Source of the DNA: a virus | Length of the DNA: 37,932 nucleotides | IMG/VR virus record: IMGVR_UViG_3300009506_000100 | Coordinates: 1-37,932 of that record | Strand: one strand, 5' to 3' | Shown here: in pieces, positions 13,588 to 28,922 of the stretch | Numbering within the stretch: position 1 is the stretch's first letter | Layout: each line of letters begins with the position of its first letter | Notes under the pieces: model-generated | Databases searched by the model: none | Seen by the model: only the letters and a program-made list of their open reading frames with translations | What the model was told of the DNA's origin: nothing | Program-made: the position numbers and the translations under genes

Positions 13588-14636
13588 ACGCCCGCGACTT
13601 GGTCAAGCAATCCGAAGGCCTGAGGTACAAGGCTTATCGCGACTCGCGGGGTGTGTGGACTATCGGCTATGGCCACACCAAGGGCGTTGCTGAAGGGGAC
13701 ACGTGCACCAAGGAGCAAGCCGAATTATGGCTCGATGCCGACCTTGCATCCGCGTTCATGTTAATTGATCAGGTGGTGTCTTCGCCGCTGACCACCCAGC
13801 AGCGTGATGCGCTGGCTAGTTTTGTGTTCAACGTTGGACCGGGCTTGAAAGGAGATAACGACGGATTTTTGGTACTTAAGTCTGGGAAGCCGAGCACGAT
13901 CCTGCTGAAGTTAAACGCAGGCGACATGTTTGGTGCCGCAGACGAGTTGTTGAAGTGGACACGCGCAGGTAGCACCCACCCAGCTGGCTTGGTGGTCAGG
14001 CGCAAGCGGGAACGCGCATTGTTCCTGTCCGGCACCGACATCAATCCGGACCCTATTCCCACTCAGGAGGATAACGACATGGCACCATTTCTCATGGCAG
14101 CAATCCCGGCACTCATTCAGGAGTTGCCCAACTTCGCAAAGATTTTTCAGAATAAGGACGTCGCCGAGCGCAACGTTGAAGCAGTGACCAAGGCAGCGGA
14201 CATCATCGTTAAGTCGGTCCCCGGCGCGTCAAACCTACAGGATGCGGTCGAGAAAATCCAGACCGACCCTGAAGCGAAAGACGCGGCTAATGAAGCCGTG
14301 AAGATGAGCACGGCTGATCTGCTCGACGTCATCGAGCGCGTGAGTGCGATCGACCAGAAGAGCATCGACAGCGCCCGTGTGTTCAACGCTGGTGAACCGC
14401 TCATGATCAACAGCAAGCGCATCCAGATGAAGTTCTGGCATGTGCTCGCGCTGTTTGTCACCGTCGCGTTCCTTGTCGCAGTCGTGGTAGTCGCGGTCAA
14501 GTCGACCAACGAGGGCGAACGCATGATGATGTTTCAGGCGTTGATCGGCTCCTACCTGCTGATCATGGGCTTCGTGTTCGGGTCCAGCACCGGCAGCAAG
14601 GTGAAGGACTTCATGCGTGGCGGGCCACAGCCATGA
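13584..14636 (+). CDS. Endolysin: N-terminal GH24 (T4/lambda-type) lysozyme fused to a ~190-aa C-terminal region that ends in two TM helices (350 aa)
   Basis: GH24 catalytic pattern QSEGLRYKAYRDSRGVWTIGYGHT (Glu, Asp, Thr), plus QQRDALASFVFNVGPG. C-terminal hydrophobic helices FWHVLALFVTVAFLVAVVVVAV and MMMFQALIGSYLLIMGFVFGSS. Confidence 0.85.
   Translation: MNARDLVKQSEGLRYKAYRDSRGVWTIGYGHTKGVAEGDTCTKEQAELWLDADLASAFMLIDQVVSSPLTTQQRDALASFVFNVGPGLKGDNDGFLVLKSGKPSTILLKLNAGDMFGAADELLKWTRAGSTHPAGLVVRRKRERALFLSGTDINPDPIPTQEDNDMAPFLMAAIPALIQELPNFAKIFQNKDVAERNVEAVTKAADIIVKSVPGASNLQDAVEKIQTDPEAKDAANEAVKMSTADLLDVIERVSAIDQKSIDSARVFNAGEPLMINSKRIQMKFWHVLALFVTVAFLVAVVVVAVKSTNEGERMMMFQALIGSYLLIMGFVFGSSTGSKVKDFMRGGPQP
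14079..14636 (+). CDS. Possible in-frame internal translation product of the endolysin gene: membrane domain only, 185 aa, holin-like candidate
   Basis: A perfect AGGAGG at 14065-14070 lies 8 nt upstream of the in-frame ATG at 14079, at the boundary between the lysozyme domain and the C-terminal region. Confidence 0.3.
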   Translation: MAPFLMAAIPALIQELPNFAKIFQNKDVAERNVEAVTKAADIIVKSVPGASNLQDAVEKIQTDPEAKDAANEAVKMSTADLLDVIERVSAIDQKSIDSARVFNAGEPLMINSKRIQMKFWHVLALFVTVAFLVAVVVVAVKSTNEGERMMMFQALIGSYLLIMGFVFGSSTGSKVKDFMRGGPQP

Positions 14637-14974
14637 CGTACGAATACAGGCATGTTGGCGTGGTCCATGTCGTCGACGGTGATACCGTGAAGCTGATCGT
14701 CGACATGGGCAACAAAATCCGGTGGACTGAGAACTTCCGCTTGTTCGGGATCGATACACCCGAGCGGGGGCAGGTCAACCACGATGAGGCTACCGACTAT
14801 CTAAACAAGCTGTTGTCGAATGGGGTCACGCGGATCGTGACCTATAAGCCGGATAAGTATGGCAGGTGGCTCGTCGACATATGGGTTGCCATCGATGGCG
14901 GGGAGCTTCACGCAAATCACGCGATGGTCGTGGAAGGATTTGCCAAGGAGTATTTCGGCGGGAAGAAGGGCTAG
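14633..14974 (+). CDS. Staphylococcal-nuclease (SNase / thermonuclease)-like nuclease, 113 aa
   Basis: SNase pattern VVDGDTVKL ... FRLFGIDTPE ... DKYGRWLVDI ... NHAMVVEGFAKEY. ATGA overlap with the endolysin stop. Confidence 0.75.
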   Translation: MTYEYRHVGVVHVVDGDTVKLIVDMGNKIRWTENFRLFGIDTPERGQVNHDEATDYLNKLLSNGVTRIVTYKPDKYGRWLVDIWVAIDGGELHANHAMVVEGFAKEYFGGKKG

Positions 14975-14988
14975 CGCCTCTGGTGTGT

Positions 14989-15162
14989 TCATGGCATCAC
15001 CATCCACAGCTTAACAGCGATACCGATCGTGAGGAAAAACACACCCAAGATCAGCGATAACCCTAGCAGATGCCACCAGTGGTCCTCCTTAACCTTCATT
15101 GCCGTGAGATAGACAGCACCGTATGCGGCGCTAACCGTGAGTATGAAACCGATAGACGTCAT
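14989..15162 (-). CDS. Small two-TM membrane protein (57 aa), below the ORF-track cutoff
   Basis: Hand translation gives MTSIGFILTVSAAYGAVYLTAMKVKEDHWWHLLGLSLILGVFFLTIGIAVKLWMVMP. Its ATG overlaps the upstream stop (ATGA at 15159-15162). Confidence 0.5.
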   Translation of the reverse strand: MTSIGFILTVSAAYGAVYLTAMKVKEDHWWHLLGLSLILGVFFLTIGIAVKLWMVMP

Positions 15163-15620
15163 GATCTTCCCCTTCGTTGTGATTTGACCGGGGAGCTATG
15201 AGTATAGCTCCCTCCCCGTTTGACAACCTCCGTGATGGCACGACACAAGCCGGAGACGTCCTCGTAGACCAGCGCTCGGCTCGCCGCATCCGCCCACGGC
15301 AAATCCCTCGACTCCGCCAAGCTGCTCCACCTCCATAAGAAGTGGGCGTTGGGGGTGCCTATCCACAAGTAACAATGCCCCGACCCTTTGCTGCCGCGCT
15401 GTATGAGCCAATCCTGCTGCCCGTGCGTGTAGTGCTTGATCGCATTCAACGACTTTGGTATCTTCTCGCAGTACTTTATTTCGATCCAGCCGTCCGCACG
15501 GTGTGCGCTGAACGACAGGTCGGGTATGAAGTTCTGCACTGAGTCCTCGTGTTGCTGAGTCTTCCAGCCCAGCCCGCGCAGCAGGTCGGCTACTTCGTGT
15601 TTGTACTCCAGTTCTGTCAT
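15159..15620 (-). CDS. VRR-NUC / PD-(D/E)XK nuclease (153 aa)
   Basis: Motif NFIPDLSF ... DGWIEIKY ... HGQQDWL matches the PD...(D/E)xK core and the VRR-NUC pattern. ATGA overlap with the upstream gene. VRR-NUC genes often co-occur with phage SNF2 helicases. Confidence 0.7.
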   Translation of the reverse strand: MTELEYKHEVADLLRGLGWKTQQHEDSVQNFIPDLSFSAHRADGWIEIKYCEKIPKSLNAIKHYTHGQQDWLIQRGSKGSGHCYLWIGTPNAHFLWRWSSLAESRDLPWADAASRALVYEDVSGLCRAITEVVKRGGSYTHSSPVKSQRRGRS

Positions 15621-16192
15621 GGCGGGGTGAGCCTCTCCGACTGGTTCACAAACGGAAGCCCCAAATCCATCAGCACCGGATTCGCAGTGTCATATGCCTC
15701 GTGTTCGTGCACGAAGTCCTCCACTGCCCGCCAGCACTTATCCGCCACAGTTCTAGCATGGTGGCCAGCGCCATTCTCCCCGATCCACCATGCCGCCTCG
15801 ATCAGATCGGCCAACTTGATCAAGTTGCGTTCCACTCCGGACAAGCTGCGACCCGGCGACGGTGTCAAATACGGAAGGTTTGGCATGATGTCGGCATCCA
15901 TGCTGTGGAAGATATCGACCACCTCATCCGGATTCTGGCGGCTGCGTATGAACGACTTACCCGGCGTGGGTATGTCGCCATACCTGATTTCGGGGGAATC
16001 GTGGAACATCAGCGCAGTCATGAAGTGCGCGGACGGCTCACCCAACATAGCCCGCTTAAACAATTCCAGCCCGATCACCGTCACGTTGTACTGGTGCTCC
16101 GCAAGGTTCTGCTCCTTGGTGGTGTTTATGATGGTCCACCGCTTGATGTGGCTGGTGCGGGCCAGTTCGTAGAAGCTTAGCTCTTTGCTCAT
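15617..16192 (-). CDS. datZ: HD-domain phosphohydrolase, YfbR-like. Candidate DatZ (dATP triphosphohydrolase).
   Basis: Motifs HIKRW, NLAEHQYNV and LMFHDSPEIRYGDIPTPGK match the YfbR-like HD pattern. Third gene of the purZ operon, joined by ATGA overlaps on both sides. Confidence 0.65.
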   Translation of the reverse strand: MSKELSFYELARTSHIKRWTIINTTKEQNLAEHQYNVTVIGLELFKRAMLGEPSAHFMTALMFHDSPEIRYGDIPTPGKSFIRSRQNPDEVVDIFHSMDADIMPNLPYLTPSPGRSLSGVERNLIKLADLIEAAWWIGENGAGHHARTVADKCWRAVEDFVHEHEAYDTANPVLMDLGLPFVNQSERLTPP

Positions 16193-16620
16193 AACGCCCG
16201 CCCTCCATGATCGTCCTGTGTGCCGTGCTGCTCAAGACACGCATGTAGCACAGCGATGGTCTGCACGATTTCACTGCGCACCGAGTTGCGGTCAGTGCCG
16301 CCCTTGATCACAGCCTGCTTAGCCTCCGCAAGCTCGGCCTCGGCGATGAGAATCCATTCCGCGATGGAGTGCGGGGATTGCTCGATGCTGCCCCACTTGG
16401 AGTCTTGGAAGTTGCGCTCTACCTGAATGGCGGCACGCACATCAGCAATACGCTGGCGCTGCTTCAGAGCCTTGGCCTGCTCACTTATCTGCTTGCGTAT
16501 GTTGTGCCCGGTAAGCGCTTGGCGCAGATCGTCCGCGCCGAGTGGACACTTGTGGTCGGAAGTCAGGGTGCCTCCGCACCGCTGGCACCGACCAAAAACT
16601 GCTGTGTTTTGCACGTCCAT
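16189..16620 (-). CDS. mazZ: MazG-like all-alpha NTP pyrophosphohydrolase with an N-terminal Cys-rich (zinc-ribbon-like) segment. Candidate MazZ.
   Basis: FQDSKWG...HSIAEWILIAEAELAEAKQAV...VRSEIVQTIAVLHACLE resembles phage MazG-like / dATP-dGTP diphosphohydrolase families. N-terminal CQRCGG...HKCP. The ATG at 16620 follows AAGGGGGA. The TTG start at 16671 in the track would overlap purZ. Confidence 0.55.
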   Translation of the reverse strand: MDVQNTAVFGRCQRCGGTLTSDHKCPLGADDLRQALTGHNIRKQISEQAKALKQRQRIADVRAAIQVERNFQDSKWGSIEQSPHSIAEWILIAEAELAEAKQAVIKGGTDRNSVRSEIVQTIAVLHACLEQHGTQDDHGGRAL

Positions 16621-16621
16621 C

Positions 16622-17677
16622 TCAATCCCCCTTAGTAGTGAAAACGTCGTTGTGGGAAGCACCCCAGCCAAGCATGGTCAACTCAGCGCCAGTGTTGCTG
16701 ATGATGCGCTCATAGTCGTGCAGCCGCAGCGCATTCTCATCCTCGTCGCGCTCGATGTAGTTGACGAAGTTTAGAAACACCTCGTCGACTCCGTTCATGC
16801 GCACGGCATCGGCGATCTGCTGTGGCGAGAACGTGAAAATGCGTCGCGGCAGTTGAGTCACCGTGGTAAGTTCTGGCTCCATTCCGAGTTGGCTCCACTC
16901 GATCTCGCGCTGGTCGTCGTAGCACGGGCCAGAGGTGCCGACCTGTACACCGTCCTTGTAACGATTGGCGACGCGGATCGGGTAGGTGCGTGCGCAGCCG
17001 TAGACGCGGGTGTTCCTGCTCTGAGCGAATGCACGTGGGATCGCACAATCGGACAGTAGCTGGTGCGTTGTACAATCACGGCTGGTGGTGTACGGATAAA
17101 AGCCCTGATTTATCGACAGCGAGAATCCCTGTGCGCCCTCCAGCAACAACTTGTTTGCGGAGTCGAGCGCGCTGTTATAGTCGTCTGCCGACGCCAGCAG
17201 TGCTTCCAGTGGCGTGCCCACCAACACATCGCGTGCGATAATGCTGGCATCCGGATCGCGCTTAATCTTTTCGATGACTGCGGCACCCACACCCTTCATC
17301 GTGCTGCCGATCTTGAACATAGACTCGGATTCAGCCAAGCGATGACCGGCACTCACTACGGCTGCGTTCTCGTGGATGAAAATCTGCACCCCGTCGAGAT
17401 ACTCGATGTAATCGTTAAGCTCATTCCACAGGTTGTCGATGTCGATCACCGAGCCGGGACCGATCAAAATGCGGCGCAGGTTGGGGGACACGATGCCGTT
17501 GGGTAGTGCGCAGTTAACGAACTTCTTGCCGTTGGAATCGATGTACGTGTGGCCAGCGTTCGGACTCCATGCGATAGCGATCGTGTCATATGCGTGCTTC
17601 TCGGCCAGATACCCGGCCAGCAGCCCTTTACCCGTGCTGCCGTATTGCAGATCGGTGATGATGTCGAATCTCTTCAT
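16622..17677 (-). CDS. purZ: Adenylosuccinate-synthetase homologue of the PurZ type (predicted N6-succino-2-amino-2'-deoxyadenylate synthase), 351 aa
   Basis: PurA signatures are kept: SPNAGHTY, IGSTMKGVGAAVIEKI, EGAQGFSLSINQGFYPYTTS. The P-loop reads QYGSTGKG instead of the PurA GDEGKGK. The protein is ~80 aa shorter than cellular PurA and sits next to MazG-like, HD and PolA genes. Confidence 0.8.
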   Translation of the reverse strand: MKRFDIITDLQYGSTGKGLLAGYLAEKHAYDTIAIAWSPNAGHTYIDSNGKKFVNCALPNGIVSPNLRRILIGPGSVIDIDNLWNELNDYIEYLDGVQIFIHENAAVVSAGHRLAESESMFKIGSTMKGVGAAVIEKIKRDPDASIIARDVLVGTPLEALLASADDYNSALDSANKLLLEGAQGFSLSINQGFYPYTTSRDCTTHQLLSDCAIPRAFAQSRNTRVYGCARTYPIRVANRYKDGVQVGTSGPCYDDQREIEWSQLGMEPELTTVTQLPRRIFTFSPQQIADAVRMNGVDEVFLNFVNYIERDEDENALRLHDYERIISNTGAELTMLGWGASHNDVFTTKGD

Positions 17678-17763
17678 TGCTTCTCTCCTTTGGTGATGAC
17701 GATTGGCGGTATAAACGGGACATAGCCAGCCATAGCCAGCGATGCGTACAGCAGTGTCGGCAT
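17674..17763 (-). CDS. Possible 29-aa hydrophobic leader peptide overlapping the purZ start
   Basis: Hand translation gives MPTLLYASLAMAGYVPFIPPIVITKGEKQ. Its TGA overlaps the purZ ATG. The SD-like AAGGAGAG lies ~15 nt upstream, which is a long spacing. Confidence 0.2.
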   Translation of the reverse strand: MPTLLYASLAMAGYVPFIPPIVITKGEKQ

Positions 17764-17811
17764 GATAACTTTCAATTCACTCTCCTTGTGCGTATGTTGT
17801 CTGATGCGGCC

Positions 17812-17840
17812 AGTGTATCACACCGGCACGCACCAGTCCA
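17812..17840 (-). promoter_or_regulatory. Sigma70-like promoter candidate for the purZ operon (TGGACT-N17-TACACT on the minus strand)
   Basis: The + strand shows AGTGTA (17812-17817) and AGTCCA (17835-17840) exactly 17 nt apart. The same hexamer pair recurs at 23374-23402 and 27935-27963. Confidence 0.45.
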
Positions 17841-17851
17841 GCATGTTTTTA

Positions 17852-18034
17852 TCAAATAATCCCCTTCCACACCAGCACAGCGGCCAGTATAACAAGTACC
17901 ACGAACAGTGCGGCCCCTCCCCAAAATGGGGCGGTGACCCACCACCAAGACCAGTTAATGTATCCGGTCAATTTAAGTGTAACAAACACTACGCCGAGTA
18001 AACCAACCGTACTGATAGAACTACTATTAGCCAT
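17852..18034 (-). CDS. Small two-TM membrane protein (60 aa)
   Basis: The ATG at 18034 follows AAGGAGAGG. Sequence MANSSSISTVGLLGVVFVTLKLTGYINWSWWWVTAPFWGGAALFVVLVILAAVLVWKGII. The longer track ORF would overlap the SSB gene. Confidence 0.55.
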   Translation of the reverse strand: MANSSSISTVGLLGVVFVTLKLTGYINWSWWWVTAPFWGGAALFVVLVILAAVLVWKGII

Positions 18035-18044
18035 GATCCTCTCC

Positions 18045-18326
18045 TTAAAACGGGATATCATCATCCATTTCGTCGAATCCGCTGCTGGTGGGTCTGGGGT
18101 TGTTGGCCGCGCCACGCTGCGCACGCGTCGCGGGCTGTTGCTCCTTCAATTGGAACGACAACGACAAAAATGCCTCGCCGGTCGTCCTGTTCTTCTGCTT
18201 CCACCCGCTGATCCAGTACTCCACACCCTCAATCTCACATTTGCCACTGTAGTCGGGTTGTGCGTCCTTTTCCTTGCGCTTGTTGGTGCCGAGGGTGCCT
18301 CGCATGTTGTTGTCGTACTGTGCCAT
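18045..18326 (-). CDS. Single-stranded DNA-binding protein (short, 93 aa)
   Basis: Acidic C-terminal tail FDEMDDDIPF, typical of bacterial and phage SSBs. The ATG at 18326 follows AAGGAG. Lies immediately downstream of the polymerase gene. Confidence 0.6.
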   Translation of the reverse strand: MAQYDNNMRGTLGTNKRKEKDAQPDYSGKCEIEGVEYWISGWKQKNRTTGEAFLSLSFQLKEQQPATRAQRGAANNPRPTSSGFDEMDDDIPF

Positions 18327-18345
18327 TGCTATTGCTCCTTGAGTG

Positions 18346-20205
18346 CTATTTGCTTGCTTCGAACCAATTCGGCCCAACTTCGACCGACGACTTGATGGGT
18401 ACGCGCAGCCTGATAGGACAACGCTCACCATCGAAAACTTCTAACACCTCCTTCACCATGCCAGATTGTCTGGCAGACTCCGACTTTCGCATGGAGAAGT
18501 CCAACTCATCGTGCACGGACAGCAGCATTCCAATGCCTTCACTCTGGCACACAGGCCAGAGTTCTACCATCTTCTGCTTCATGCAGTCCGCACTCGATCC
18601 CTGAAATACAAGGCCACCCGCCTTATGCGTGTACTTGCCACCGGGGAAGCGGATATGCCGCCCCATGATGGTCTTCACATAACCGCGTGATTTGGCGATA
18701 GCCGACGCCTCACTCAGTAGCTTGGATACGCCCGGAATCGCACCGTGGTATGTGCCGAAAATCTCCTCGGCCTTGGGTCCAGCGTTGAACCACTCGCGGC
18801 CATCGGTGCCGTAACGTACCGTATAATCAAGTCCCATCTCGTACGCCATCTTACCCTTACCCATACCAAACACTAGACCAAGGTTTATCTGCTTCGCGTT
18901 GGCGTCACCCGCGAATCGCGGTTTGCGCGGAATACCAGTAAGGTTGGACACGATCTGGTGATAGTCGGTATCAGGGTCGTCCGCGTATGCCTTTAGAATG
19001 TTGGGGTCTTTAGTGTAATGGGCGAACATGCGAAACTCCATCTGCGCCCAATCCGCGCAGCACCAGTCGTGCCCGTCCTCGGGTATGAAGCATGAGCGCA
19101 CGATAGCTGCGATGTCAACGTCCCGCGCTGGAATCTGCTGCAGCGCCGGGTCATTGATGGAGAATCGGCCAGTGCCGGTGCCTAGGTCGTTGTCGCCGCG
19201 TGTCTGATTGTAGTTTGGGTAGACGCGCCCGCCCACAGCGTGCGCGATGATGTGGTCCTTCAGGAACGAATTCGCCTTCGTCATCTTGCGCAGTTGTAAC
19301 ACCTGCTTGGCCCGCGCATCACCCTGCTCGGACATGATAACTAGCGTATCCTTACCAAGTGATGGCCCATCCGAATCGGTCATCGGCAACAGGAACCCCG
19401 AATCGGTGCGCCATTCGAAGCCCTTCGGATTGTCGGCGTCGCACTTCTTCACCTTGAACAGTTCACGCATCTGCTTGGGCGAGTTTGCGTTCATGACGGC
19501 ACCAGCCAGTTTGTCTAGTGCGCGTTGTGCCTCGTCAATCTTGCGGGCGACGTCCTTCATGGAGCCGTGCGCACGCTGTTCGTCCACGCGCACCCCCTGA
19601 CGCTCAATGTGGCACAGGATCGGCGTTACTCGCTTTTCCAGCGACCACACCTGCCCCAACTCTTGACGTTTGATCTCTTCCTCCTGCCACAACCACAGCT
19701 TGATAGCGAGCACGGGGTCTTCGATTGCGTACTTCCCGGCCAACGACTCTGGCGCACGATGCAGGTTGGGCATTTGTGCCTCGCGTGTGGGCTTGCCACC
19801 AAACATCGCCGCCAGTTCCGCGTAGATGTCGACCTTTGACACGTTCAGGTACTTGCGCGACAATGAGTCCAGACTGAAGGAGCGCTCGTGCTCGTTGATA
19901 AGTGCGGAGCGAACGCTGGTGCACTCGATGGAGTCGTCCGACACACGCACACCTTTGTTCATCAGGAAGTTTACGTCGAACTTGATGTTGTGGTTTACCA
20001 GCCGTTTGATCAGCGGCACCTCAGTGCGCAGCATCTCGACCACACGCGTCTTGCTGCGGATGTCGAAATAGCCGGACACGATCTTCTCACCGTCATAAGC
20101 AGCGACAGCGATCCCGAACACATCGTCCTTGTACCAGTGAAGTCCAGTAGTTTCAGTGTCGATCGAAACTATTGGGTACTCGTGCAGCCTTGCAAGATTC
20201 AGCAT
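18346..20205 (-). CDS. Family A DNA polymerase with 3'-5' proofreading exonuclease (619 aa). Candidate DpoZ-type polymerase.
   Basis: Exo motifs: VSIDTETTGL, NHNIKFDVNFL, YAIEDPVLA. Pol motifs: A DWAQMEFRMFAHY, B AKQINLGLVFGMGKG, C LSVHDEL. The ATG at 20205 follows GGGGG. The track start at 20235 is a TTG that overlaps the helicase gene. Confidence 0.9.
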   Translation of the reverse strand: MLNLARLHEYPIVSIDTETTGLHWYKDDVFGIAVAAYDGEKIVSGYFDIRSKTRVVEMLRTEVPLIKRLVNHNIKFDVNFLMNKGVRVSDDSIECTSVRSALINEHERSFSLDSLSRKYLNVSKVDIYAELAAMFGGKPTREAQMPNLHRAPESLAGKYAIEDPVLAIKLWLWQEEEIKRQELGQVWSLEKRVTPILCHIERQGVRVDEQRAHGSMKDVARKIDEAQRALDKLAGAVMNANSPKQMRELFKVKKCDADNPKGFEWRTDSGFLLPMTDSDGPSLGKDTLVIMSEQGDARAKQVLQLRKMTKANSFLKDHIIAHAVGGRVYPNYNQTRGDNDLGTGTGRFSINDPALQQIPARDVDIAAIVRSCFIPEDGHDWCCADWAQMEFRMFAHYTKDPNILKAYADDPDTDYHQIVSNLTGIPRKPRFAGDANAKQINLGLVFGMGKGKMAYEMGLDYTVRYGTDGREWFNAGPKAEEIFGTYHGAIPGVSKLLSEASAIAKSRGYVKTIMGRHIRFPGGKYTHKAGGLVFQGSSADCMKQKMVELWPVCQSEGIGMLLSVHDELDFSMRKSESARQSGMVKEVLEVFDGERCPIRLRVPIKSSVEVGPNWFEASK

Positions 20206-20206
20206 G

Positions 20207-21499
20207 TCAACCCCCAATGATGGACGGTGGTTCAAATAGTGGGTTGCCTCCGCTCAGGATCAACTCGTCTGAGGTGCGCGTCAGAGCCACGTACAGGACG
20301 CGCAGTTCGGCATCACGATCGTTGTATATCCCGGACAGCACGCGTGTGGGCAGGTTCAGGTCGACTACAACGCGTCGATGCTCACGCCCCTTGGCCTGAT
20401 GGATCGTCGACAGCTGCACCTCGATCGGCTTGTTCAGGTCCGCTTGGGCGTAGAACTCGCGCAGGTGGATCGGAATCTCGGGCTTGCCGCCCTCGCGCAA
20501 CTCACGAGCGATCCTGCTCGTCCACGGGCTGACGCCACCCATCACCGAGTAAGGGACCATGGCCCGATTCAGATCGCGTTTTATGTCGGCGAGCCGAGCG
20601 CGATCACGCGCCAGCACGAGTGCTCCACCATCGGCGGCGATTCGCTGCAGGTCGATGTAGTGAAAGTCGTTGTATGTCGTGATGTTACCCACGGCATTGC
20701 GCGGATAGAACTGCTTCCGTACCCTGCGCCCGATCTGGGCCAACGCGACATCATGGGCAAGGTCGTGCACCATGCGCGGTACCCGATGCGACTGGCGTAA
20801 GATGTGTAACTCGCCCTCCGTGGCCTGCATGAAGTCAAGCATGCCGTGGGGGTCGGCACCATTCCACTCGTAGATCGCTTGGTCGTCATCGCCAGCGATC
20901 ACCACCTCGCATTGCTCTGGCAGCAGGGTGCGGAGCACCACCCACTGCAGCGGCGAGCAGTCCTGTGCTTCATCTAGGAACACACGCTTGTACTGCGACA
21001 GATCGCCCCGCTTTGCCCACTCCTTGAGCATGTCATCAAAGTCAACGTACCCGTATGCGGCTTTCCAGTCCTCATACGCACTGGCGAAGAACGTGAACCT
21101 GCGCATGGTCCCCGGTCTGCCGAAGTGGTCGTACGCCTCCATATGGCCTATCGACCTGTTGTTTGCGTACGCTACGACTGCCGCGTATTCATCACCCTCT
21201 TGCTGTTCCTCCTCTGACCCAGATTCGCTACCGCGCATCGGTACCCCGGCCATCTCAGCAAAAGACTTAAGTTTGGCTGCGTCTACCACTTGCGCCCGAG
21301 TCAGGCCAAGTTGGTGAAACGCTAGTGAATGCATGGTTGAGGCTGTGATGCCTTCATTCCCCTTGATCCGGGACTTCATCTCCAGTGCTGCCGCCTTGGT
21401 ATATGACAGAAGCAGGGTATCCTTCCTCCCCTCTGCCAGATCGACCAGCGTTCTCGTTTTCCCGGTGCCGGGGGGACCAAATATGGCTGAAACCTTCAT
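20207..21499 (-). CDS. Superfamily 1 (UvrD/Rep-like) DNA helicase, 430 aa
   Basis: Walker A GPPGTGKT, motif II FLDEAQD, and C-terminal STIHQAKGRE and LYVALTRT. Confidence 0.85.
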   Translation of the reverse strand: MKVSAIFGPPGTGKTRTLVDLAEGRKDTLLLSYTKAAALEMKSRIKGNEGITASTMHSLAFHQLGLTRAQVVDAAKLKSFAEMAGVPMRGSESGSEEEQQEGDEYAAVVAYANNRSIGHMEAYDHFGRPGTMRRFTFFASAYEDWKAAYGYVDFDDMLKEWAKRGDLSQYKRVFLDEAQDCSPLQWVVLRTLLPEQCEVVIAGDDDQAIYEWNGADPHGMLDFMQATEGELHILRQSHRVPRMVHDLAHDVALAQIGRRVRKQFYPRNAVGNITTYNDFHYIDLQRIAADGGALVLARDRARLADIKRDLNRAMVPYSVMGGVSPWTSRIARELREGGKPEIPIHLREFYAQADLNKPIEVQLSTIHQAKGREHRRVVVDLNLPTRVLSGIYNDRDAELRVLYVALTRTSDELILSGGNPLFEPPSIIGG

Positions 21500-21556
21500 T
21501 ATCGTCTATCCTCTCCCAAAAGCCGGGAAGCCACTGGAGCACCCCGGCAAGCTATG

Positions 21557-21585
21557 AACATAGCTGGACCTCCCCGTGAGCGCAA
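21557..21585 (-). promoter_or_regulatory. Promoter candidate (TTGCGC-N17-TATGTT on the minus strand) whose -10 lies inside the palindrome AGCTATGAACATAGCT (21550-21565)
   Basis: Hexamers and the 17-nt spacer were read directly. Sits in the intergenic gap upstream of the helicase-polymerase block. It is paralogous to 26768-26803. Confidence 0.4.
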
Positions 21586-21621
21586 CGGAAATACCTTCCG
21601 TGGCTCCGGGGGGCTATCTAT

Positions 21622-22452
21622 TTACATCTCGTGATCCCGGTCAGGCGCACCCCCCTGCGATACGTCTGTTTCGTAATCGGTGACGTCCATCGTCACCTTG
21701 CGCCCGGACTCCATCAGGCTGTACAGGCTTTCGGCCTTGTCGTACACTGGCTTCGACACATAGCCCAGCTGCTTAACCGTGTAGTTGAAGTAGTCGTCAC
21801 CGGCTTTGTTCTTCTCCAGTGCGGTCCCAATCTGGTAGGCACGGGAAAAGCGATCACCACCAGCCATGCGCACCAGCGAGTTCCACTGACGCGATACCTT
21901 AGCCTTGGTGCGCGGCATCGACACCATGACTTCGTTAATGGTGCCGTCCTTGAAGTTCAGCAACAGACACAGGTGCTGCGGGGTGTCCAGCACTTCGATG
22001 CTCCCGGGAGCGATGCCCTTGTCGCGAATCTCCTGCTCAACGCGGGCTTCCGCTTCAGCGGGGGAGTTGAATGCGCCAAAGAAACCGCCCTCACCCTTCT
22101 GTTCCCGCCCCTTCGAATCGACCCACTTGCGCTTGCCCCATACGAGCCATTGCTTGATGAAGACCACCGGCACCACTGCGACGTCCTTGCCGTACAACTC
22201 ACCAGTAACGGAGTTCACAAGCATACCGGCGCGTGCGTCCTCGTTGAACTTGGGGTCGCCCTGTTTGACTTGGGGTGACAGCGCCTGCACAATCTCCAGC
22301 CGGGGAATAACGAGGTCTTCCTGCCCGACGTTTTCAGAGCCACGCTGCTGCCCCTGCTTGATGTGATCGGGAACCTGACCCTCTTCGCCAAACACCATCA
22401 TGCTCTGCTTGTTAGCATCAACAGTCGTCATTTCAGTTTGCTTCTTTGCCAT
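21622..22452 (-). CDS. Hypothetical protein (276 aa) in the replication/recombination module
   Basis: ATG after AAGGAAG. Contains DLVIPRLEIVQALSPQ. No family assigned with confidence; an ssDNA-binding or annealing role is only a guess from position. Confidence 0.7.
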   Translation of the reverse strand: MAKKQTEMTTVDANKQSMMVFGEEGQVPDHIKQGQQRGSENVGQEDLVIPRLEIVQALSPQVKQGDPKFNEDARAGMLVNSVTGELYGKDVAVVPVVFIKQWLVWGKRKWVDSKGREQKGEGGFFGAFNSPAEAEARVEQEIRDKGIAPGSIEVLDTPQHLCLLLNFKDGTINEVMVSMPRTKAKVSRQWNSLVRMAGGDRFSRAYQIGTALEKNKAGDDYFNYTVKQLGYVSKPVYDKAESLYSLMESGRKVTMDVTDYETDVSQGGAPDRDHEM

Positions 22453-22507
22453 TGCTTCTTCCTTTCAGTTTGATTAAACGAGGATAAGCCATCCTCCGGG
22501 CTACTGC

Positions 22508-22981
22508 TCACTTCACCTTCGTGATCGATGCCCGTGTAAACGGGATCACACGCAAGTATTCCTCGGGTACGGGTTTGCCCTCCTTCATGCGGTTCTTAAC
22601 GAACGCCTTCAGTGTGCTGGCGTTGATAGTCGGCTGAATGAGGTCTTGAAAGCCATTTTCATGCAGCCATGCAAACAACCCGGCCTTGTCGGTGGCCGAC
22701 ACCAGCATATCGGCAGTCAGACCCACGCGACCGATACCGTCAAACGTGATACGCTCGATGCCGTCATCATCCATCTTGGCCGGGATGACTTCAGTGCGCA
22801 GCACATCGAACTTCGCATTGACGATGGCTAATTGCGCCTCTAGGTCATCCTTCTCGGAGCGCAATAGCTTCATGTGCTCGACCATGGAAAACAGCGTCAT
22901 GGTCTTGTATTCCTCGCGTGCCGCTGCCTTGGCCTTGTTGAACGCGCTGCTCTGCTGATCGTCGTTGTCATCACTGCTCAT
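22508..22981 (-). CDS. Hypothetical protein (157 aa) with an acidic N-terminus and a coiled-coil segment
   Basis: ATG ORF overlapping the upstream gene by 11 nt. Resemblance to Gp157-like phage proteins is weak and unverified. Confidence 0.65.
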   Translation of the reverse strand: MSSDDNDDQQSSAFNKAKAAAREEYKTMTLFSMVEHMKLLRSEKDDLEAQLAIVNAKFDVLRTEVIPAKMDDDGIERITFDGIGRVGLTADMLVSATDKAGLFAWLHENGFQDLIQPTINASTLKAFVKNRMKEGKPVPEEYLRVIPFTRASITKVK

Positions 22982-23306
22982 AGGTCTGTCCTCTCATGTC
23001 TATGTACGCCGGGATATAAGTAAAGGTGCGGTTGTCCCAGCGCAATACGTTCACACCCTTGATGCCTTTGGCACCGAGCATCATGAACACCAGTGCCGAC
23101 ACATAAGGCGAACCGGCGATCACGATGTAGTCGTTGTCGGCATCAAACTCGCGCAGGCCGCGAGCAATGTGCGCAACAAGCTTTTCATTATGCAGCGATC
23201 CCCTGATGTTGCTCAGGTCTTCGCGTGCAAGGAAACGCACTTCACCAAACTGCTCGGCTGGTACGAAGTTCAGGTTTATCTCCTGCGTTACCCATACAGT
23301 GCTCAT
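22971..23306 (-). CDS. Hypothetical protein (111 aa)
   Basis: The ATG at 23306 follows a strong AAGGAGG. The longer track start at 23432 would overlap the SNF2 gene and the promoter candidate. Confidence 0.65.
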   Translation of the reverse strand: MSTVWVTQEINLNFVPAEQFGEVRFLAREDLSNIRGSLHNEKLVAHIARGLREFDADNDYIVIAGSPYVSALVFMMLGAKGIKGVNVLRWDNRTFTYIPAYIDMRGQTYEQ

Positions 23307-23373
23307 GTCTGTACCTCCTTTCAACCGGCTATCCCGCAGGTAGGTTTCCCGGCTATCGTCTGATCTAGTCTCT

Positions 23374-23402
23374 AGTGTACCACAGGGGGCGGCTTCAGTC
23401 CA
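23374..23402 (-). promoter_or_regulatory. Sigma70-like promoter candidate (TGGACT-N17-TACACT on the minus strand)
   Basis: AGTGTA at 23374-23379 and AGTCCA at 23397-23402 on the + strand, with a 17-nt spacer. Shares CTGTGGTACACTA with the 27935 copy. Confidence 0.45.
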
Positions 23403-25164
23403 GCGCATTTTCGTCCCCATCAAGCAATGCATTCATGCGCTTGATCCGCTTGCGGATGTAGTTGTGCAAGTCCTCCTTTGACTCGATTGCTTTGGCTATC
23501 GTTACGTCCACTGTGCGCGTCGCAGTTAGGTCGATCCAGATGCCCGACTTGGTCTGCCCGTCGCCCCATGACCGGTCCTCGGCCTGCAACCGGTCCCTGA
23601 TCTTGTGCGTGTTGTTGTAGAACACGTTCACCTCAGCCGTGTGCATGGAGTAGCCCATACCACCAGTGGACGCGTTGCCAACCACGATGTCGATGCCACC
23701 ACGCTTAAACTCATCCACCATCGGTTGGCGCTCTTCCTCCGGGATGCCGCCATGCAACTCGCCTATACGCAGCCCCATGCGCTTCAACTGCCCAACGATG
23801 GCTTGGATTTCCGGATTGTACACTGCCCATACGAGCATTTGTTTATGCCGCGCCTCCTCGACGATCGACAACAACTCGATAATCTTGGGGTTCTTCTCCG
23901 GGGTCACAATCTCGACGGGGTCGTAGACCATTTTGATGCGCGGGTTGCCCTTGGCGTCGAATGTATGCACTTCACGCGGTTTGACAGTGTACCCACCGGC
24001 CACCTGATGCAGGCGCAGCAACATCTCCAACGTGTTTTGGATCACGCGGACGTCGTCGCCATGCGTGATGATGCCCTCCTTTTTGATCTTGTTGTAGATC
24101 GCCCGCTGCTCCTTTGTGATCTCGATATCGCGCACTGCATACCGTTTGGGTGGTAAATCATACGCGTCGGTCTTCATGACTTGGTATGTGTACGGTGCGA
24201 TAAGCTCCATAAGCTCATCGAGATTCTGATATCCGACGATCTGTGTGGGCTTGCCCGCCATCGGACCATCGCTGGGGGTGAACCCTCCCATCACGGCATA
24301 GCGGTTGCGGTAAGCGTAGTAATCGCCGATCCCGATGATGTTGGGGTCGAGGAATTCGAACTGCTGGTACAAGTTCATCGGCCCTTCCGCAGCCGGTGTG
24401 CCTGTCAGCGCAAAGCGAAACTCCGACATGCGGCCAAACTTCTCTGCAGCCTTGGACCTCGCGGCCTTGTGCGTCATGATGTAGTTTGTCTCGTCGCCTA
24501 TGATGGCAGTCGGGTGATGTGCCAACAGGAATCGCTCCACCATCGCGGGCATACCGCCAGATGACAACGACTCCCAACCCACAATCATGATCTTGAAATC
24601 ATGACGCGAGTGCAGGAACGTCTCAAATGCAAGCTGCTTGTCGGTGTCGGGCCTGTGCGCCAAGAACGGTATCGGGCAGTCATCGTTCAGAGCGTTGATC
24701 CAGTTCTTACGCAGCGTTTTCTTCGTGAGGATGAGCACCGCCTGCAGCTTGCCCTCCATGCGCAGCGCCGACACCATGTCAATCGACGTCTTGCTCTTGC
24801 CGGTCTGCATATCCATGAAGAATGCGAACGCGTGCTTGCCGTACGCCTTGTTCAGCGCTTCGATTTGGTGCTTGCGCGGCTCGCGCTTGAATGGGTACCA
24901 AGCCGGGAACGTCGATGGCTTGGCTTGTGCCTCCCCGCGCTGCTCGTGGTACTCGTCCAGCAGCTTCCTACAGTTCTCGTTTACCACGATGTCAGGGTCT
25001 TGCCCAATCAGGCGCTCGATGTACTCGACATTTGCCCGGATGAGTGGAGCTGTCCACGCACGCTTGGCTTTGGACCACCTTCTGTTTGGCAGACCACGCA
25101 CCCGATCGTTTTCCCATACGCGGCACTGGATGATAAACTGCTTGCCGTCACTTCCAATGTTCAT
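23395..25164 (-). CDS. SNF2/RAD54-family helicase (589 aa)
   Basis: Motif I DMQTGKSKT, motif II IIGDETNY, motif III ALTGTPAAEGP, C-terminal lobe GGMGYSMH and QAEDRSWGDGQ. SD AAGGAGAG. Confidence 0.85.
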   Translation of the reverse strand: MNIGSDGKQFIIQCRVWENDRVRGLPNRRWSKAKRAWTAPLIRANVEYIERLIGQDPDIVVNENCRKLLDEYHEQRGEAQAKPSTFPAWYPFKREPRKHQIEALNKAYGKHAFAFFMDMQTGKSKTSIDMVSALRMEGKLQAVLILTKKTLRKNWINALNDDCPIPFLAHRPDTDKQLAFETFLHSRHDFKIMIVGWESLSSGGMPAMVERFLLAHHPTAIIGDETNYIMTHKAARSKAAEKFGRMSEFRFALTGTPAAEGPMNLYQQFEFLDPNIIGIGDYYAYRNRYAVMGGFTPSDGPMAGKPTQIVGYQNLDELMELIAPYTYQVMKTDAYDLPPKRYAVRDIEITKEQRAIYNKIKKEGIITHGDDVRVIQNTLEMLLRLHQVAGGYTVKPREVHTFDAKGNPRIKMVYDPVEIVTPEKNPKIIELLSIVEEARHKQMLVWAVYNPEIQAIVGQLKRMGLRIGELHGGIPEEERQPMVDEFKRGGIDIVVGNASTGGMGYSMHTAEVNVFYNNTHKIRDRLQAEDRSWGDGQTKSGIWIDLTATRTVDVTIAKAIESKEDLHNYIRKRIKRMNALLDGDENALD

Positions 25165-25175
25165 CTATACTCTCC

Positions 25176-26732
25176 TTAAAGCTCGATTTCGTCAGCAAAG
25201 TCGATCTGTTCGGGTTCTGCCGCCAGCATCGCAGACGCAATCGGTATATACCACACGTTGCAGCCGCTGTCCTTGTCGATCCGCATCTTCTTATGCATAA
25301 CGCCGATGTCACGCACCGCAAACCACAGGTTGGTGCCTTTTAACTCCTCGCTGCGCGTCCGCTTCAGGTAGGCGACGAAGTCTTCACCACGGAACACAAC
25401 GCAGCGCTCACCGTCCACCACTTGTACGACCGGCTGTCCGCGCAACAACACTTTACGATCGGCTAGGATCATGCCGTCCCTAGTCAGGTCGGCTTTTGAT
25501 ACAAACTCACGCAGCTTGCTGCGGATGAGTCCACTGGTTGATGAGTCGTCCGGTGTGTCGACTATTCGTGCCGTAGCCATCATGGGGGCGAGCATGCGCT
25601 CCCATTCGTCGTTCTTGATCATGGGCACGATGCGCGTCAGCTTCTCGGCGATCAACATACGCATAAACTTCCAGTTCATCAGTGTGTTGGTGTCGATGTT
25701 TGTTAGCGTTGTGCCGTCGATCTTCATTTCCCATCGCACAGGATCGGTCGGGTACTTGACCAGATCGGCGAATGCGGGCAGCATGTCGCGGGCTGCGTTG
25801 TCGTCGGCCTCGCCCTCCGTGATCCCACACTTACGCGTCAGGCACACATCACGGTTACAGTACTGCTTTATCACTTCCTGCCCGCACCGGTACGAGTAGT
25901 CTGGATTCATCGCGCTGGCGACGGTCCGTTGTAGTTCGGCCTTGGGTAGCGGTGAAGTGAAGATGAAGTCATTCATCTGCCTCGCTGCGTCTGGCGCCGT
26001 GTTCGGGTCCAGCTTGCGGAAGTACACAGCCACGTTGTACATGGCTTCGTTCCTATGCCCCTTGTCCACGCCGTTTGCCATGATCGACTGGATGCACGGT
26101 GGTGCCTCCGGGTGATCGGCAACGAGCAGCCTGCCGAACTCAGAGTCGGTGAGGCTGACGGACTCGGCGTGCTCGATGAATTCGTCTATGGCTAGCTTCT
26201 TCCCGTTAACCACTGCGTATCGCACGGTGTTGTCGGCGTCGAAATAGGGGAGGTTGATCCAGTTGCCGTAGGACATTTCGCCGCCACGCTTGTACAACCG
26301 GCTCTGCTTGGGAAACACCTCAGCCCCGGCGTACCCAAGCTGCGCTGCCCATCGCGTAAGCAGTGCCCGAACTTTGCCAGCCTGCTCGGGCTTTTTCATG
26401 AATAAGTAACAGTGGACTCCTCCGCTCTTCGATCTGCACATCACCAACGGCATCTGCATTGCGCGTGCGTTGGACTCGATGTCTTCTATCGGCAGGTCCG
26501 CATCTTCACCGTGGTTGTCTAGGTCGATGGCAGCCCAAGTACACGTGCCGTCATCTTGGATAGGCACCCCACCACACCCACCCTTGCCGCTCAGGTGATC
26601 GGCCATCACTTCACTGGTGATAGGCTCGTGCTCAACGTGCATCCGCTCCCGCTCCGGATTCCAGCGCCCGGACGACCTCGGGTTAGAGGCGAACAGCGCC
26701 ATGAACCGCTTGATTATGTCGTTGGTCTTCAT
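25176..26732 (-). CDS. Primase-polymerase of the archaeo-eukaryotic primase (AEP) superfamily with a helical C-terminal primase domain (518 aa)
   Basis: AEP motifs AAIDLDNHG (DxD), SKSGGVHCYLF (sGGxH) and GNWINLPYF. Later GHRNEAMYNVAVYFRK resembles PriCT-type domains. No P-loop helicase domain was seen. Confidence 0.75.
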   Translation of the reverse strand: MKTNDIIKRFMALFASNPRSSGRWNPERERMHVEHEPITSEVMADHLSGKGGCGGVPIQDDGTCTWAAIDLDNHGEDADLPIEDIESNARAMQMPLVMCRSKSGGVHCYLFMKKPEQAGKVRALLTRWAAQLGYAGAEVFPKQSRLYKRGGEMSYGNWINLPYFDADNTVRYAVVNGKKLAIDEFIEHAESVSLTDSEFGRLLVADHPEAPPCIQSIMANGVDKGHRNEAMYNVAVYFRKLDPNTAPDAARQMNDFIFTSPLPKAELQRTVASAMNPDYSYRCGQEVIKQYCNRDVCLTRKCGITEGEADDNAARDMLPAFADLVKYPTDPVRWEMKIDGTTLTNIDTNTLMNWKFMRMLIAEKLTRIVPMIKNDEWERMLAPMMATARIVDTPDDSSTSGLIRSKLREFVSKADLTRDGMILADRKVLLRGQPVVQVVDGERCVVFRGEDFVAYLKRTRSEELKGTNLWFAVRDIGVMHKKMRIDKDSGCNVWYIPIASAMLAAEPEQIDFADEIEL

Positions 26733-26774
26733 ACGCCCTCAAGAAAAAGGCATCGGGAGAGGGGGGTAGCTATG

Positions 26775-26803
26775 TTCATAGCGTGACCCTCTACCGAATG
26801 CAA
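26775..26803 (-). promoter_or_regulatory. Promoter candidate (TTGCAT-N17-TATGAA on the minus strand) whose -10 lies inside the palindrome AGCTATGTTCATAGC (26768-26782)
   Basis: Read directly. Sits in the 127-bp gap upstream of the prim-pol gene. Flanks align with the 21550-21600 element (GGTATTT..CC.TTGC). Confidence 0.4.
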
Positions 26804-26859
26804 GGAAAATACCCTCCCGCCCCGGAAAGCCATATCCGGGGACTTAACACTACACCTTC

Positions 26860-27345
26860 CTAGCTGATACCCTGCTTGGCCCGTTCTCGCTCGGCCCGCC
26901 CCGACTCCATCTCACGGGCCACAGCCTCTAGCCCCTCGGCCAACTGGCGCATCACGCCCTCATCGGCCCCATCTGGTGAGGTCAGGTGCACATAGTCCAT
27001 CGGGCTAAGGCCCGACTCGATCAGCAGACCAGCCGACAACCGGCTGACCAAAGTGACCTGAGCGGAACGGACCCTTGACAACCCCTCTGGGTCATTCTTC
27101 ACCACGCCGGCCCCATCCATCCTGATGAGGTACAGGAGGGTGGCAGCGCACTCATCCGGGGGTGACAACTTGTCAGCCATCCTCCTGCCATTGGTAATGT
27201 CCATCAGCAGACTCATGAACTCTTTATCGCCCCATATATCGCAGCACACAGTGAACATACCAAACTCATCAAAAACGCTGCGTGTGGCCCACACCCGCAT
27301 GACAGTGTGCATCAAGTCACGATGCTTGTTGAGTGGTATAACCAT
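26860..27345 (-). CDS. Hypothetical protein (161 aa)
   Basis: ATG ORF with a TAATG overlap to the upstream gene. No motif recognised. Confidence 0.65.
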   Translation of the reverse strand: MVIPLNKHRDLMHTVMRVWATRSVFDEFGMFTVCCDIWGDKEFMSLLMDITNGRRMADKLSPPDECAATLLYLIRMDGAGVVKNDPEGLSRVRSAQVTLVSRLSAGLLIESGLSPMDYVHLTSPDGADEGVMRQLAEGLEAVAREMESGRAERERAKQGIS

Positions 27346-27887
27346 TACTTGCCCCCTTTCTTGAAATAACCGCGTAGCCGATTTCCCAACGTCATGCGCT
27401 TGCGCCCGTTGTCCAGATGCTCATATTTGGCCCGCAACTCGTCCTCAGTCTCACCCAACTTGCTCGCTGCAAGCGTGAAGACATCGTCCAGAGTCGTGCA
27501 GGCACGAAGTAGAACAGCGACCTCATCGCCATTGTCCCGCACCCCCTCGACTCTCATCTTCTCTCGTCTATCAACTGCCTTTTTTGTCGGCTGACGCCCG
27601 TATTTGTTGCGTGACACTGGAGCTAAGCTCACCAGATCAGCCGGTACGTTAAAGCTCGTTCTGTCCAGTGGTGCTGGCTGGTCCGGCCTGATCACGCAGT
27701 CGGCGATTCTAACGAATGTCCCCTGCTCCCATGCCGGTGGTACGCGCTCCAAGTAATACCGCTGGTCGTTGTACCACACCGAATCCCCCACTTTCAGTGA
27801 TCCCGGCTCATGCAGACGCGGGAACAGGTCTGGTCTTATGGGGTCGGGTTCCGTGCGCGGGGGTTTTGTATCCCTTTTTACGTTCAT
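27345..27887 (-). CDS. Hypothetical protein (180 aa). Its C-terminal module is shared with the 30469-31221 protein.
   Basis: The ATG at 27887 follows GAGAGGA. C-terminus NGDEVAVLL...LDDVF..AASKLGETEDELRAKYEHLDNGRKRMTLGNRLRGYF. The GTG start in the track would overlap the promoter candidate. Confidence 0.65.
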   Translation of the reverse strand: MNVKRDTKPPRTEPDPIRPDLFPRLHEPGSLKVGDSVWYNDQRYYLERVPPAWEQGTFVRIADCVIRPDQPAPLDRTSFNVPADLVSLAPVSRNKYGRQPTKKAVDRREKMRVEGVRDNGDEVAVLLRACTTLDDVFTLAASKLGETEDELRAKYEHLDNGRKRMTLGNRLRGYFKKGGK

Positions 27888-27934
27888 TTTGATCCTCTCA
27901 TGTCTATTAGCTATCTGGCGTGAGCCAGACCTGT

Positions 27935-27963
27935 AGTGTACCACAGGTCTAGCCCTGAGTCAA
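27935..27963 (-). promoter_or_regulatory. Sigma70-like promoter candidate (TTGACT-N17-TACACT on the minus strand) embedded in an 8-bp-arm inverted repeat
   Basis: AGTGTA at 27935-27940 and AGTCAA at 27958-27963, with a 17-nt spacer. The flanking AGACCTGT ... ACAGGTCT arms bracket the -10. Confidence 0.5.
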
Positions 27964-27969
27964 ACCACG

Positions 27970-28137
27970 TTAGTGCAGCGCTTTCCAGTTGACAAGCTGC
28001 CCGCGTACCCGAAACGCCATCGGTTTCAGTAGGTTAAGCCTGTCAAATTCCTTCACATACTCGACCACGTCGGTCGCATATGACTTCACTGGAATGAGCA
28101 GCTTCGGCTTGCTCGTCTTGGTTTTGTATTTCTTCAT
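27970..28137 (-). CDS. Hypothetical small basic protein (55 aa)
   Basis: The ATG at 28137 follows AAGGAGG and overlaps the upstream stop (ATGA). Confidence 0.5.
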   Translation of the reverse strand: MKKYKTKTSKPKLLIPVKSYATDVVEYVKEFDRLNLLKPMAFRVRGQLVNWKALH

Positions 28138-28448
28138 CCTAGCTTTACCTCCTTCAGCCGTTGTACCGCCAACAACACCCGCATGCCACCCCACGTGTTA
28201 AGTTGTTGGATAACCGTCACTTCGTCGTCGCCATTGAGCATCGTGTGGGAGTGCATCACGTACCAAAAATCAACCTTTTCACCACACTCAACACTCGTCG
28301 CTGCCCCGATAGCCTGCGCTAGTTGCATTTCAGGCTCAGCATGCCTCGGTACCTTTAACAACAACTCGTCGACGTCTACTTCAATTTGGAGATTCGACCA
28401 CGAGTAGTCTTTAGAATCCCACATACAGACTTCATAGATACCGATCAT
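28134..28448 (-). CDS. Hypothetical protein (104 aa)
   Basis: ATGA-coupled member of the early operon. No motif recognised. Confidence 0.6.
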   Translation of the reverse strand: MIGIYEVCMWDSKDYSWSNLQIEVDVDELLLKVPRHAEPEMQLAQAIGAATSVECGEKVDFWYVMHSHTMLNGDDEVTVIQQLNTWGGMRVLLAVQRLKEVKLG

Positions 28449-28657
28449 TGTGAAGTCCTCCCAATGGTGCGTGCCTCCTCATTTGCCGCCTGCACAATCG
28501 GCGCGAGTGCTTCGATGTCGGCGTGCGACTCGACCTCAATGACGAGTAGGATGGTGTTGTCACCTGCAGCCATCTGTGTGAACGCATGACCCGCTTGATC
28601 GAGGTGTTTTTTGAACACGGGCAGCTTGTAGTCATCAATAATAATTCCTGTTTTCAT
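28445..28657 (-). CDS. Hypothetical protein (70 aa)
   Basis: ATGA-coupled on both sides within the early operon. Confidence 0.6.
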   Translation of the reverse strand: MKTGIIIDDYKLPVFKKHLDQAGHAFTQMAAGDNTILLVIEVESHADIEALAPIVQAANEEARTIGRTSQ

Positions 28658-28887: not shown

Positions 28888-28922
28888 AATGCCTCCTCAA
28901 AATGGTATCGAGTCGATACGGC

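Follow-up and report, generated by a model that had tools for sequence, protein, structure and literature searches.

Family A DNA polymerases of the DpoZ type, found in phages that replace adenine (A) with 2-aminoadenine (Z), are described in the literature in two lineages, which match the split between PurZ and PurZ0, and metagenomic DpoZ homologues have been reported as well, two of which raised dZ incorporation in Escherichia coli. For the DpoZ of Vibrio phage phiVC8 (PDB 7PBK; Pezo et al. 2021), full-length product was obtained with about 16 uM dZTP as against about 450 uM dATP, i.e. about 30-fold less, and this ratio persists in exonuclease-dead mutants (PMC8599892). Czernecki et al. attributed the phiVC8 preference to backtracking, which is more efficient at a nascent A:T than at a nascent Z:T pair (PMC8599892). 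The phiVC8-like clade, or DpoZ-2, is defined by an insertion in the palm (strands 7/8), one in helix O and one at the fingers tip (helices O1/P), by the residues L455 and F459 in motif B and G548 in motif 6, and by an active exonuclease whose helices E1/E2 are elongated and mobile and contain R161 (or K) together with M165 (or I/A); Ser583 of phiVC8 is not characteristic of the clade (PMC8599892). Here we describe the family A polymerase gene of IMGVR_UViG_3300009506_000100, the whole genome of an uncultured phage (37,932 bp, with direct terminal repeats and an estimated completeness of 100%), which was analysed at its full length and is called the window below. The enzyme (hereafter the query) is a phiVC8-like DpoZ (DpoZ-2; PolA cluster 18) and thus an uncultured member of a published family. 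We put at about 0.8 the probability that the gene encodes the replicative polymerase of a Z-genome phage, namely a family A enzyme with proofreading that falls within the phiVC8-like DpoZ clade.

Phylogenetic placement and fold of the polymerase

The gene lies on the minus strand of the window:

18346..20205, minus strand: dpoZ, family A DNA polymerase of 619 amino acids, phiVC8-like DpoZ (DpoZ-2) clade; stop codon TAG at 18346-18348

Among solved structures, the best relative of the query in a phmmer search of the PDB was phiVC8 DpoZ (7PBK; E 4.7e-127, 428 bits, residues 6-617), and the Klenow enzyme came next with 161 bits. The 40 best records of the phage collection, whose scores are 404 bits or more at 38-45% identity, all carry PurZ as well; they include PMBT28, VLCpiS6a, SH-Ab 15497, VP2/phiVC8-like vibriophages and Burkholderia phage Bm1. 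In the next tier, which consists of non-Z Mesyanzhinovviridae, identity falls to 30% and the score to 219 bits. A megablast search of positions 14000-30000 of the window against the phage records gave no match, and the collection therefore holds no close isolate.

A tree of 56 rows and 630 columns was inferred with IQ-TREE (LG+C20+F+G4 with posterior mean site frequencies, PMSF; 1000 ultrafast bootstraps) from 14 labelled references, nine IMG/VR relatives, 32 cluster representatives drawn from a search of 1.8 billion proteins, and the query; the near-duplicate locus L023 was omitted. The query was found inside a 40-row clade with phiVC8, K300, Bm1, SH-Ab 15497, PMBT28 and VLCpiS6a (support 100/100, stem 0.45), and its placement was unchanged in a quick LG+G4 tree. 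The inner 35-row clade of the DpoZ tree had support 99/96. Outside the DpoZ clade were phiJL001, Ab20, JEP7, Klenow, a T5-like enzyme, T7 gp5, the mycobacteriophage PolA of Hami1, and the DpoZ of phage Wayne. An earlier note on this DNA, made from the letters alone, had proposed a candidate DpoZ-type enzyme; the placement inside the phiVC8/SH-Ab 15497 clade, together with the published insertions and residues described below, supports this proposal, and the tree did not group the query with T7-like enzymes or Pol I of the ordinary kind. Inside the DpoZ clade, six rows form the subclade of the query (100/99), which is composed of uncultured viruses only (L016-L019 and P0002); the nearest relative of the query is 74% identical.

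The AlphaFold2 (AF2) model of the query, built on 23 clade sequences, had a mean predicted local distance difference test score (pLDDT) of 92.2. In a Foldseek search, its top match was again 7PBK (E 2.5e-51, template modelling score 0.83-0.85), followed by Klenow (6e-33).

Catalytic motifs and clade-specific features

Motifs were read from a MAFFT alignment of the query with Klenow, T7 gp5 and phiVC8 DpoZ. In the order of the protein, the features are:

19693..20193, minus strand: 3'-5' exonuclease domain, residues 5-171 (Pfam PF01612 DNA_pol_A_exo1, 2e-9)
20149-20160, minus strand: Exo I, D16-T-E18-T (alignment)
19975-19995, minus strand: Exo II, NHNIKFD77 (alignment)
19756..19824, minus strand: extended exonuclease helices E1/E2, residues 128-150 (alignment, AF2 model, definition in PMC8599892)
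19717-19731, minus strand: Exo III, Y159-AIE-D163 (alignment)
18361..19560, minus strand: polymerase domain, residues 216-615 (Pfam PF00476 DNA_pol_A, 6e-54)
19180..19197, minus strand: DpoZ-clade insertion 1, residues 337-342, in the palm, equivalent to phiVC8 G349-G353 (alignment)
19030..19056, minus strand: motif A, ADWAQMEFR, with catalytic D385 (alignment)
18901..18921, minus strand: DpoZ-clade insertion 2, residues 429-435, in helix O, equivalent to phiVC8 A442-P448 (alignment)
18865..18900, minus strand: motif B, NAKQINLGLVFG (alignment)
18784..18828, minus strand: DpoZ-clade insertion 3, residues 460-474, at the fingers tip (alignment, AF2 model)
18598..18624, minus strand: motif 6, KAGGLVFQG, with G531 (18613-18615) at the position of phiVC8 G548 and Klenow N845
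18505..18516, minus strand: motif C, VHDE, with H565 and D566, then E567

All the polymerase and exonuclease catalytic motifs (Exo I-III, A, B, 6 and C) are intact in the alignment, in agreement with the earlier reading of the gene as a polymerase with three exonuclease motifs and polymerase motifs A, B and C. The motif B residues of the query are R427, K438, L442 and F446; L442 (18880-18882) occupies the position of Klenow F762 and phiVC8 L455, and F446 (18868-18870) that of Klenow Y766 and phiVC8 F459. In the exonuclease, R141 and M145 of the E1/E2 region align with R161 and M165 of phiVC8, and helices 128-135 and 141-150 of the AF2 model match E1/E2. In the same model a loop, residues 424-436, interrupts helix O in the region of insertion 2, and insertion 3 is predicted to form a beta-hairpin (461-475). 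The published DpoZ-2 markers are therefore all found in the query: the three insertions, L442/F446/G531, R141/M145, and the exonuclease residues D16/E18/D77.

The polymerase occupies one open frame (18346-20235, minus strand), from which translation starting at the ATG at 20205 gives the 619 amino acids. This start was chosen because a GGGGG run resembling a Shine-Dalgarno sequence lies 7 nt upstream, because the upstream UvrD-type helicase gene stops with TGA at 20209-20207, just before the ATG, and because tblastn alignments with the homologues of PMBT28 and VLCpiS6a open at residue 1 of the query, which corresponds to their annotated starts. An alternative start, TTG at 20235, was rejected: a gene beginning there would run into that of the helicase, and the alignments with homologues open at the 20205 ATG.

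Gene neighbourhood

The replication arm on the minus strand starts with genes for an archaeo-eukaryotic primase (AEP), an SNF2 helicase, small open reading frames (ORFs), a Pam3 gp34-like protein and a UvrD-type helicase; it continues with the polymerase, a single-stranded DNA-binding protein (SSB), PurZ, an ORF of 160 amino acids, a DatZ-like HD hydrolase and a 153-amino-acid phrog_2165 protein. The main neighbours are:

25176-26732, minus strand: AEP primase
23395-25164, minus strand: SNF2 helicase
20207..21499, minus strand: UvrD/PcrA-type helicase, directly upstream of dpoZ
18045..18326, minus strand: SSB gene, between dpoZ and purZ (phrog_7364, 5e-23, matching from residue 36 of the long frame)
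16622..17677, minus strand: purZ, 2-aminoadenylosuccinate synthetase (PHROG 1211, 2e-83)
15617..16192, minus strand: datZ-like gene, HD-domain dATP triphosphohydrolase (phrog_7076, 2e-26)

The earlier note had placed the polymerase in one arm with purZ, and purZ is indeed found 668 nt downstream of dpoZ on the same strand, with the SSB gene alone between them. The top PDB match of the window PurZ was phiVC8 PurZ (6FM1, 5e-82), and both this structure and S-2L PurZ (7ODX) scored far above any PurA. Its loop reads GSTGKG as against GDEGKG in PurA, so that Ser replaces Asp, and it is 46% identical to the PurZ of phiVC8 and of SH-Ab 15497 and 32% identical to that of Wayne. The top PDB match of the DatZ-like HD protein was S-2L DatZ (6ZPA, 2.6e-13).

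No MazG (PF03819), DUF550 (PF04447) or MazG-like (PF12643) protein was recognisable across the whole 37.9-kb genome, and tblastn searches of the genome gave no match for the DUF5664 protein of Wayne, the DUF550 fusion of SH-Ab 15497 or small ORFs of phiVC8. The Z toolkit of this phage is thus composed of PurZ, DatZ and DpoZ, without a recognisable MazZ. The 'full Z toolkit' that the earlier note expected if the enzyme belonged to the DpoZ clade consequently stands as far as these three proteins are concerned, but does not extend to a pyrophosphohydrolase of the MazG/MazZ, DUF550 or DUF5664 type. Because a Z-type polymerase lies beside PurZ and DatZ, the exclusion of adenine need not rest on DatZ alone.

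A UvrD/PcrA-type helicase gene is present at the equivalent place in SH-Ab 15497, PMBT28 and VLCpiS6a. The long SSB frame (18045-18431, minus strand) overlaps the 3' end of the polymerase gene by 86 nt; the most likely SSB start is the ATG at 18326, which lies behind an AAGGAG site, 20 nt past the polymerase stop, and coincides with the point where SSB homologues begin to align.

The 160-amino-acid ORF (16189-16671, minus strand) occupies the place between PurZ and DatZ at which MazZ or a DUF550/DUF5664 protein is encoded in other Z phages. It is kept in L016-L019, and no Pfam, PDB or MazG-family match was obtained for it. The two small ORFs flanking DatZ had no relatives in the PDB. The 153-amino-acid phrog_2165 protein (15159-15620, minus strand), which follows DatZ, is labelled 'DNA helicase' in PHROGs, but is far too small for one. 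In VLCpiS6a and SH-Ab 15497 its homologues come after the Z cluster, but in the purZ-less locus L024 the homologue comes directly after the polymerase, and the gene therefore belongs to the replication backbone rather than to the Z cluster.

Marker residues and PurZ in uncultured relatives

Two scans of IMG/VR yielded 21 loci in the identity range of the DpoZ clade and 69 phiJL001-like loci, and each was assigned a signature consisting of the residues at the positions of query L442/F446/G531 (phiVC8 455/459/548). At loci with the signature L-F-G, PurZ was encoded just downstream in all the 15 informative cases. At loci with L-Y-A (L020, L022, L023 and L024) it was found in none of four, and among the phiJL001-like L-Y-N loci in none of 69, though many of the latter are short fragments. 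The query itself shows the PurZ-linked L-F-G signature, and both PurZ and DatZ are encoded next to it.

The L-Y-A polymerases are 43-45% identical to the query (L022:741-2597, L024:7968-9842 and L020:7977-9845). They group with the representatives P0009 and P0031 (Shimodaira-Hasegawa approximate likelihood-ratio test, SH-aLRT, 100 in the quick trees), and in the careful tree the group is nested in the 99/96 clade. It has no cultured member, and its best matches among isolates are Z phages, at 45-47% identity. Two of the four L-Y-A genomes are complete or 98% complete, and in these no PurZ or DatZ was found by tblastn with four PurZ and three DatZ queries; as positive controls, the same searches did detect them in the window and in L016 and L017. 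Locus L024 retains the backbone of primase, SNF2 helicase, UvrD helicase, polymerase and phrog_2165 gene, but lacks the block composed of SSB, PurZ, the intervening ORF (X) and DatZ; a nucleotide kinase gene follows instead. A search of viral contigs for related loci with the Tyr-type representatives P0069, P0022 and P0038 gave no match, and the contigs obtained with P0069 in a metagenome search were, at 2.6-3.9 kb, not long enough to reveal whether PurZ is present.

Because the purZ-less relatives have Tyr/Ala and every PurZ-linked member examined has Phe/Gly, the pair F446/G531 (Klenow Y766/N845) might be coupled to Z use beyond being a marker of the clade, a tentative idea which we consider rather less probable than a simple clade marker. 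In Klenow, N845 is close to the nascent pair on its minor-groove side, the site of the 2-amino group of Z, which would make G531 a reasonable candidate contributor. If the idea is true, the query and its purZ-less cousins (e.g. L022 and L024) constitute a natural swap experiment for the determinants of Z-over-A selection.

Comparison with known systems

The query shares with phiVC8 DpoZ (7PBK; Pezo et al. 2021; PMC8599892) the clade (100/100), 40% identity over the full length, the architecture of exonuclease plus polymerase, the three insertions, the L/F/G residues, R/M on helix E2 and the active exonuclease residues. The two enzymes belong to different subclades, insertion 1 of the query is one residue longer, and the gene order of phiVC8 differs in that a primase gene lies between dpoZ and purZ and no UvrD helicase gene is found upstream. 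The DpoZ enzymes of SH-Ab 15497 (Acinetobacter), PMBT28 (Salmonella) and VLCpiS6a (Klebsiella) are 43-45% identical to the query and have HDE in motif C and L/F/G in common with it. The gene order of these phages is also that of the window, i.e. UvrD helicase, DpoZ, SSB, PurZ, X, DatZ and phrog_2165. However, in these three phages insertion 1 is longer (13-16 residues as against 10 in the query), as is insertion 3, and a pyrophosphohydrolase of the DUF550/DUF5664 or MazZ type is encoded between PurZ and DatZ, where the window has the unrelated 160-amino-acid ORF; in the tree the query is in its own uncultured subclade (100/99), separate from them.

Among the nearest groups outside the clade are the phiJL001-like PolA enzymes of non-Z phages (cluster 11, PMC10201439), which are 30% identical to the query and resemble it in having insertions 1 and 3, E1/E2-like helices and a Leu at motif B position 3. 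In contrast to the query, they have no insertion 2, show the canonical Tyr/Asn at the positions of F446/G531 and possess an extra Exo I loop; they form a separate clade (SH-aLRT 99 in the quick trees), to which the query does not belong. The DpoZ of the Arthrobacter phage Wayne (DpoZ-1, PolA cluster 19), which is reported to prefer Z, has Phe at motif B position 4 like the query, but belongs to an unrelated, D29-like PolA lineage, has none of the clade insertions and reads FFN where the query reads LFG; it is paired with PurZ0, DutZ and DmtZ, whereas the query is paired with PurZ and DatZ.

Proposed Z preference and alternative explanations

In the scheme that we propose, PurZ and host purine enzymes would make dZTP, DatZ would destroy dATP, and the polymerase would copy the genome together with the adjacent UvrD-type helicase and the SSB. 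By extending opposite T more efficiently with dZTP than with dATP, the polymerase would add a kinetic bias for Z. The preference of this enzyme for dZTP over dATP is suggested by homology with its characterised relatives, and the virion DNA of this virus would be expected to contain Z.

Several points weigh against reading the gene as the polymerase of a Z-genome phage. The query is only 40-43% identical to characterised DpoZ enzymes and at most 45% identical to the enzyme of any isolate. Compared with phiVC8, its insertion 3 is about five residues shorter, and its motif C reads HDE, as in SH-Ab 15497, instead of HDS with Ser583. No single residue of phiVC8 DpoZ explains the preference, each atypical residue being found also in some polymerase of ATGC-DNA (PMC8599892), and in S-2L DpoZ is dispensable and DatZ suffices. 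Moreover, the purZ-less L-Y-A group is nested within the DpoZ clade, so that membership of the clade alone is no proof of Z use, and the link between signature and PurZ rests on few independent contrasts, i.e. one nested group and an outgroup.

An alternative is that the query, while a true member of the DpoZ clade, does not discriminate usefully between the two nucleotides, and that adenine is excluded through removal of dATP by DatZ, as in cyanophage S-2L with its non-selective PrimPol. DatZ is encoded in this genome, DpoZ is known to be dispensable for complete A-to-Z replacement, closely related polymerases in PurZ-less phages indicate that the scaffold works with ordinary dATP, and no single residue is known to set Z specificity. 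Nevertheless, this explanation appears improbable to us, although it deserves more weight than the others considered here: the DpoZ enzymes of phiVC8 and SH-Ab 15497 and two metagenomic homologues are reported to prefer Z or to raise dZ incorporation, and in our sample F446 and G531 occur only with PurZ, the purZ-less relatives having Tyr/Ala.

It is very unlikely that the gene encodes an ordinary phage PolA of the phiJL001, T7, T5 or Pol I type which merely lies near purZ. The query has the general PolA motifs, and its insertions 1 and 3, as well as its Leu at motif B position 3, are found in the phiJL001-like enzymes too; the phylogeny, however, refutes this origin, as the tree excludes the query from all these groups (100/100). 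Insertion 2, F446 and G531 are absent from the phiJL001-like enzymes, and the score of the query is 428 bits with 7PBK, but 161 with Klenow and 219 with phiJL001 or Ab20. An affiliation with the Wayne-like DpoZ-1, the second, convergent lineage of Z polymerases, found in actinophages with PurZ0, is hardly conceivable despite the common Phe at motif B position 4. It is refuted by the tree, in which the enzyme of Wayne has a long branch and is placed far outside the clade, and by the marker residues, since Wayne lacks the three insertions and the glycine of G548 and has F instead of L at motif B position 3; the window PurZ also sides with that of phiVC8 and SH-Ab 15497 (46%) against that of Wayne (only 32%).

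As a phiVC8-like DpoZ, the enzyme is an expected component of a published system known from isolates and metagenomes. It stands for a compact subclade, with a short insertion 3, that has no cultured or characterised member, and the genome in which it works has no recognisable MazZ. One point goes beyond the published accounts of DpoZ consulted here, namely the purZ-less sister group with Tyr/Ala at the marker positions, and the contrast with these relatives offers a concrete handle for mutagenesis of the Z preference of DpoZ.

Diversity of the clade in metagenomes

About 80 clusters at 50% identity had better scores than the phiJL001-like tier in the protein search. Metagenomes therefore contain a far greater diversity of phiVC8-like DpoZ than the 21 sequences of the 2023 PolA reclassification. 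Several of the cluster representatives in the DpoZ clade (P0003, P0005, P0010, P0011, P0025, P0042, P0057 and P0059) have lengths of 860-940 amino acids, and their match to the query is split into two separate stretches, which suggests inteins or homing-endonuclease insertions in the polymerase gene.

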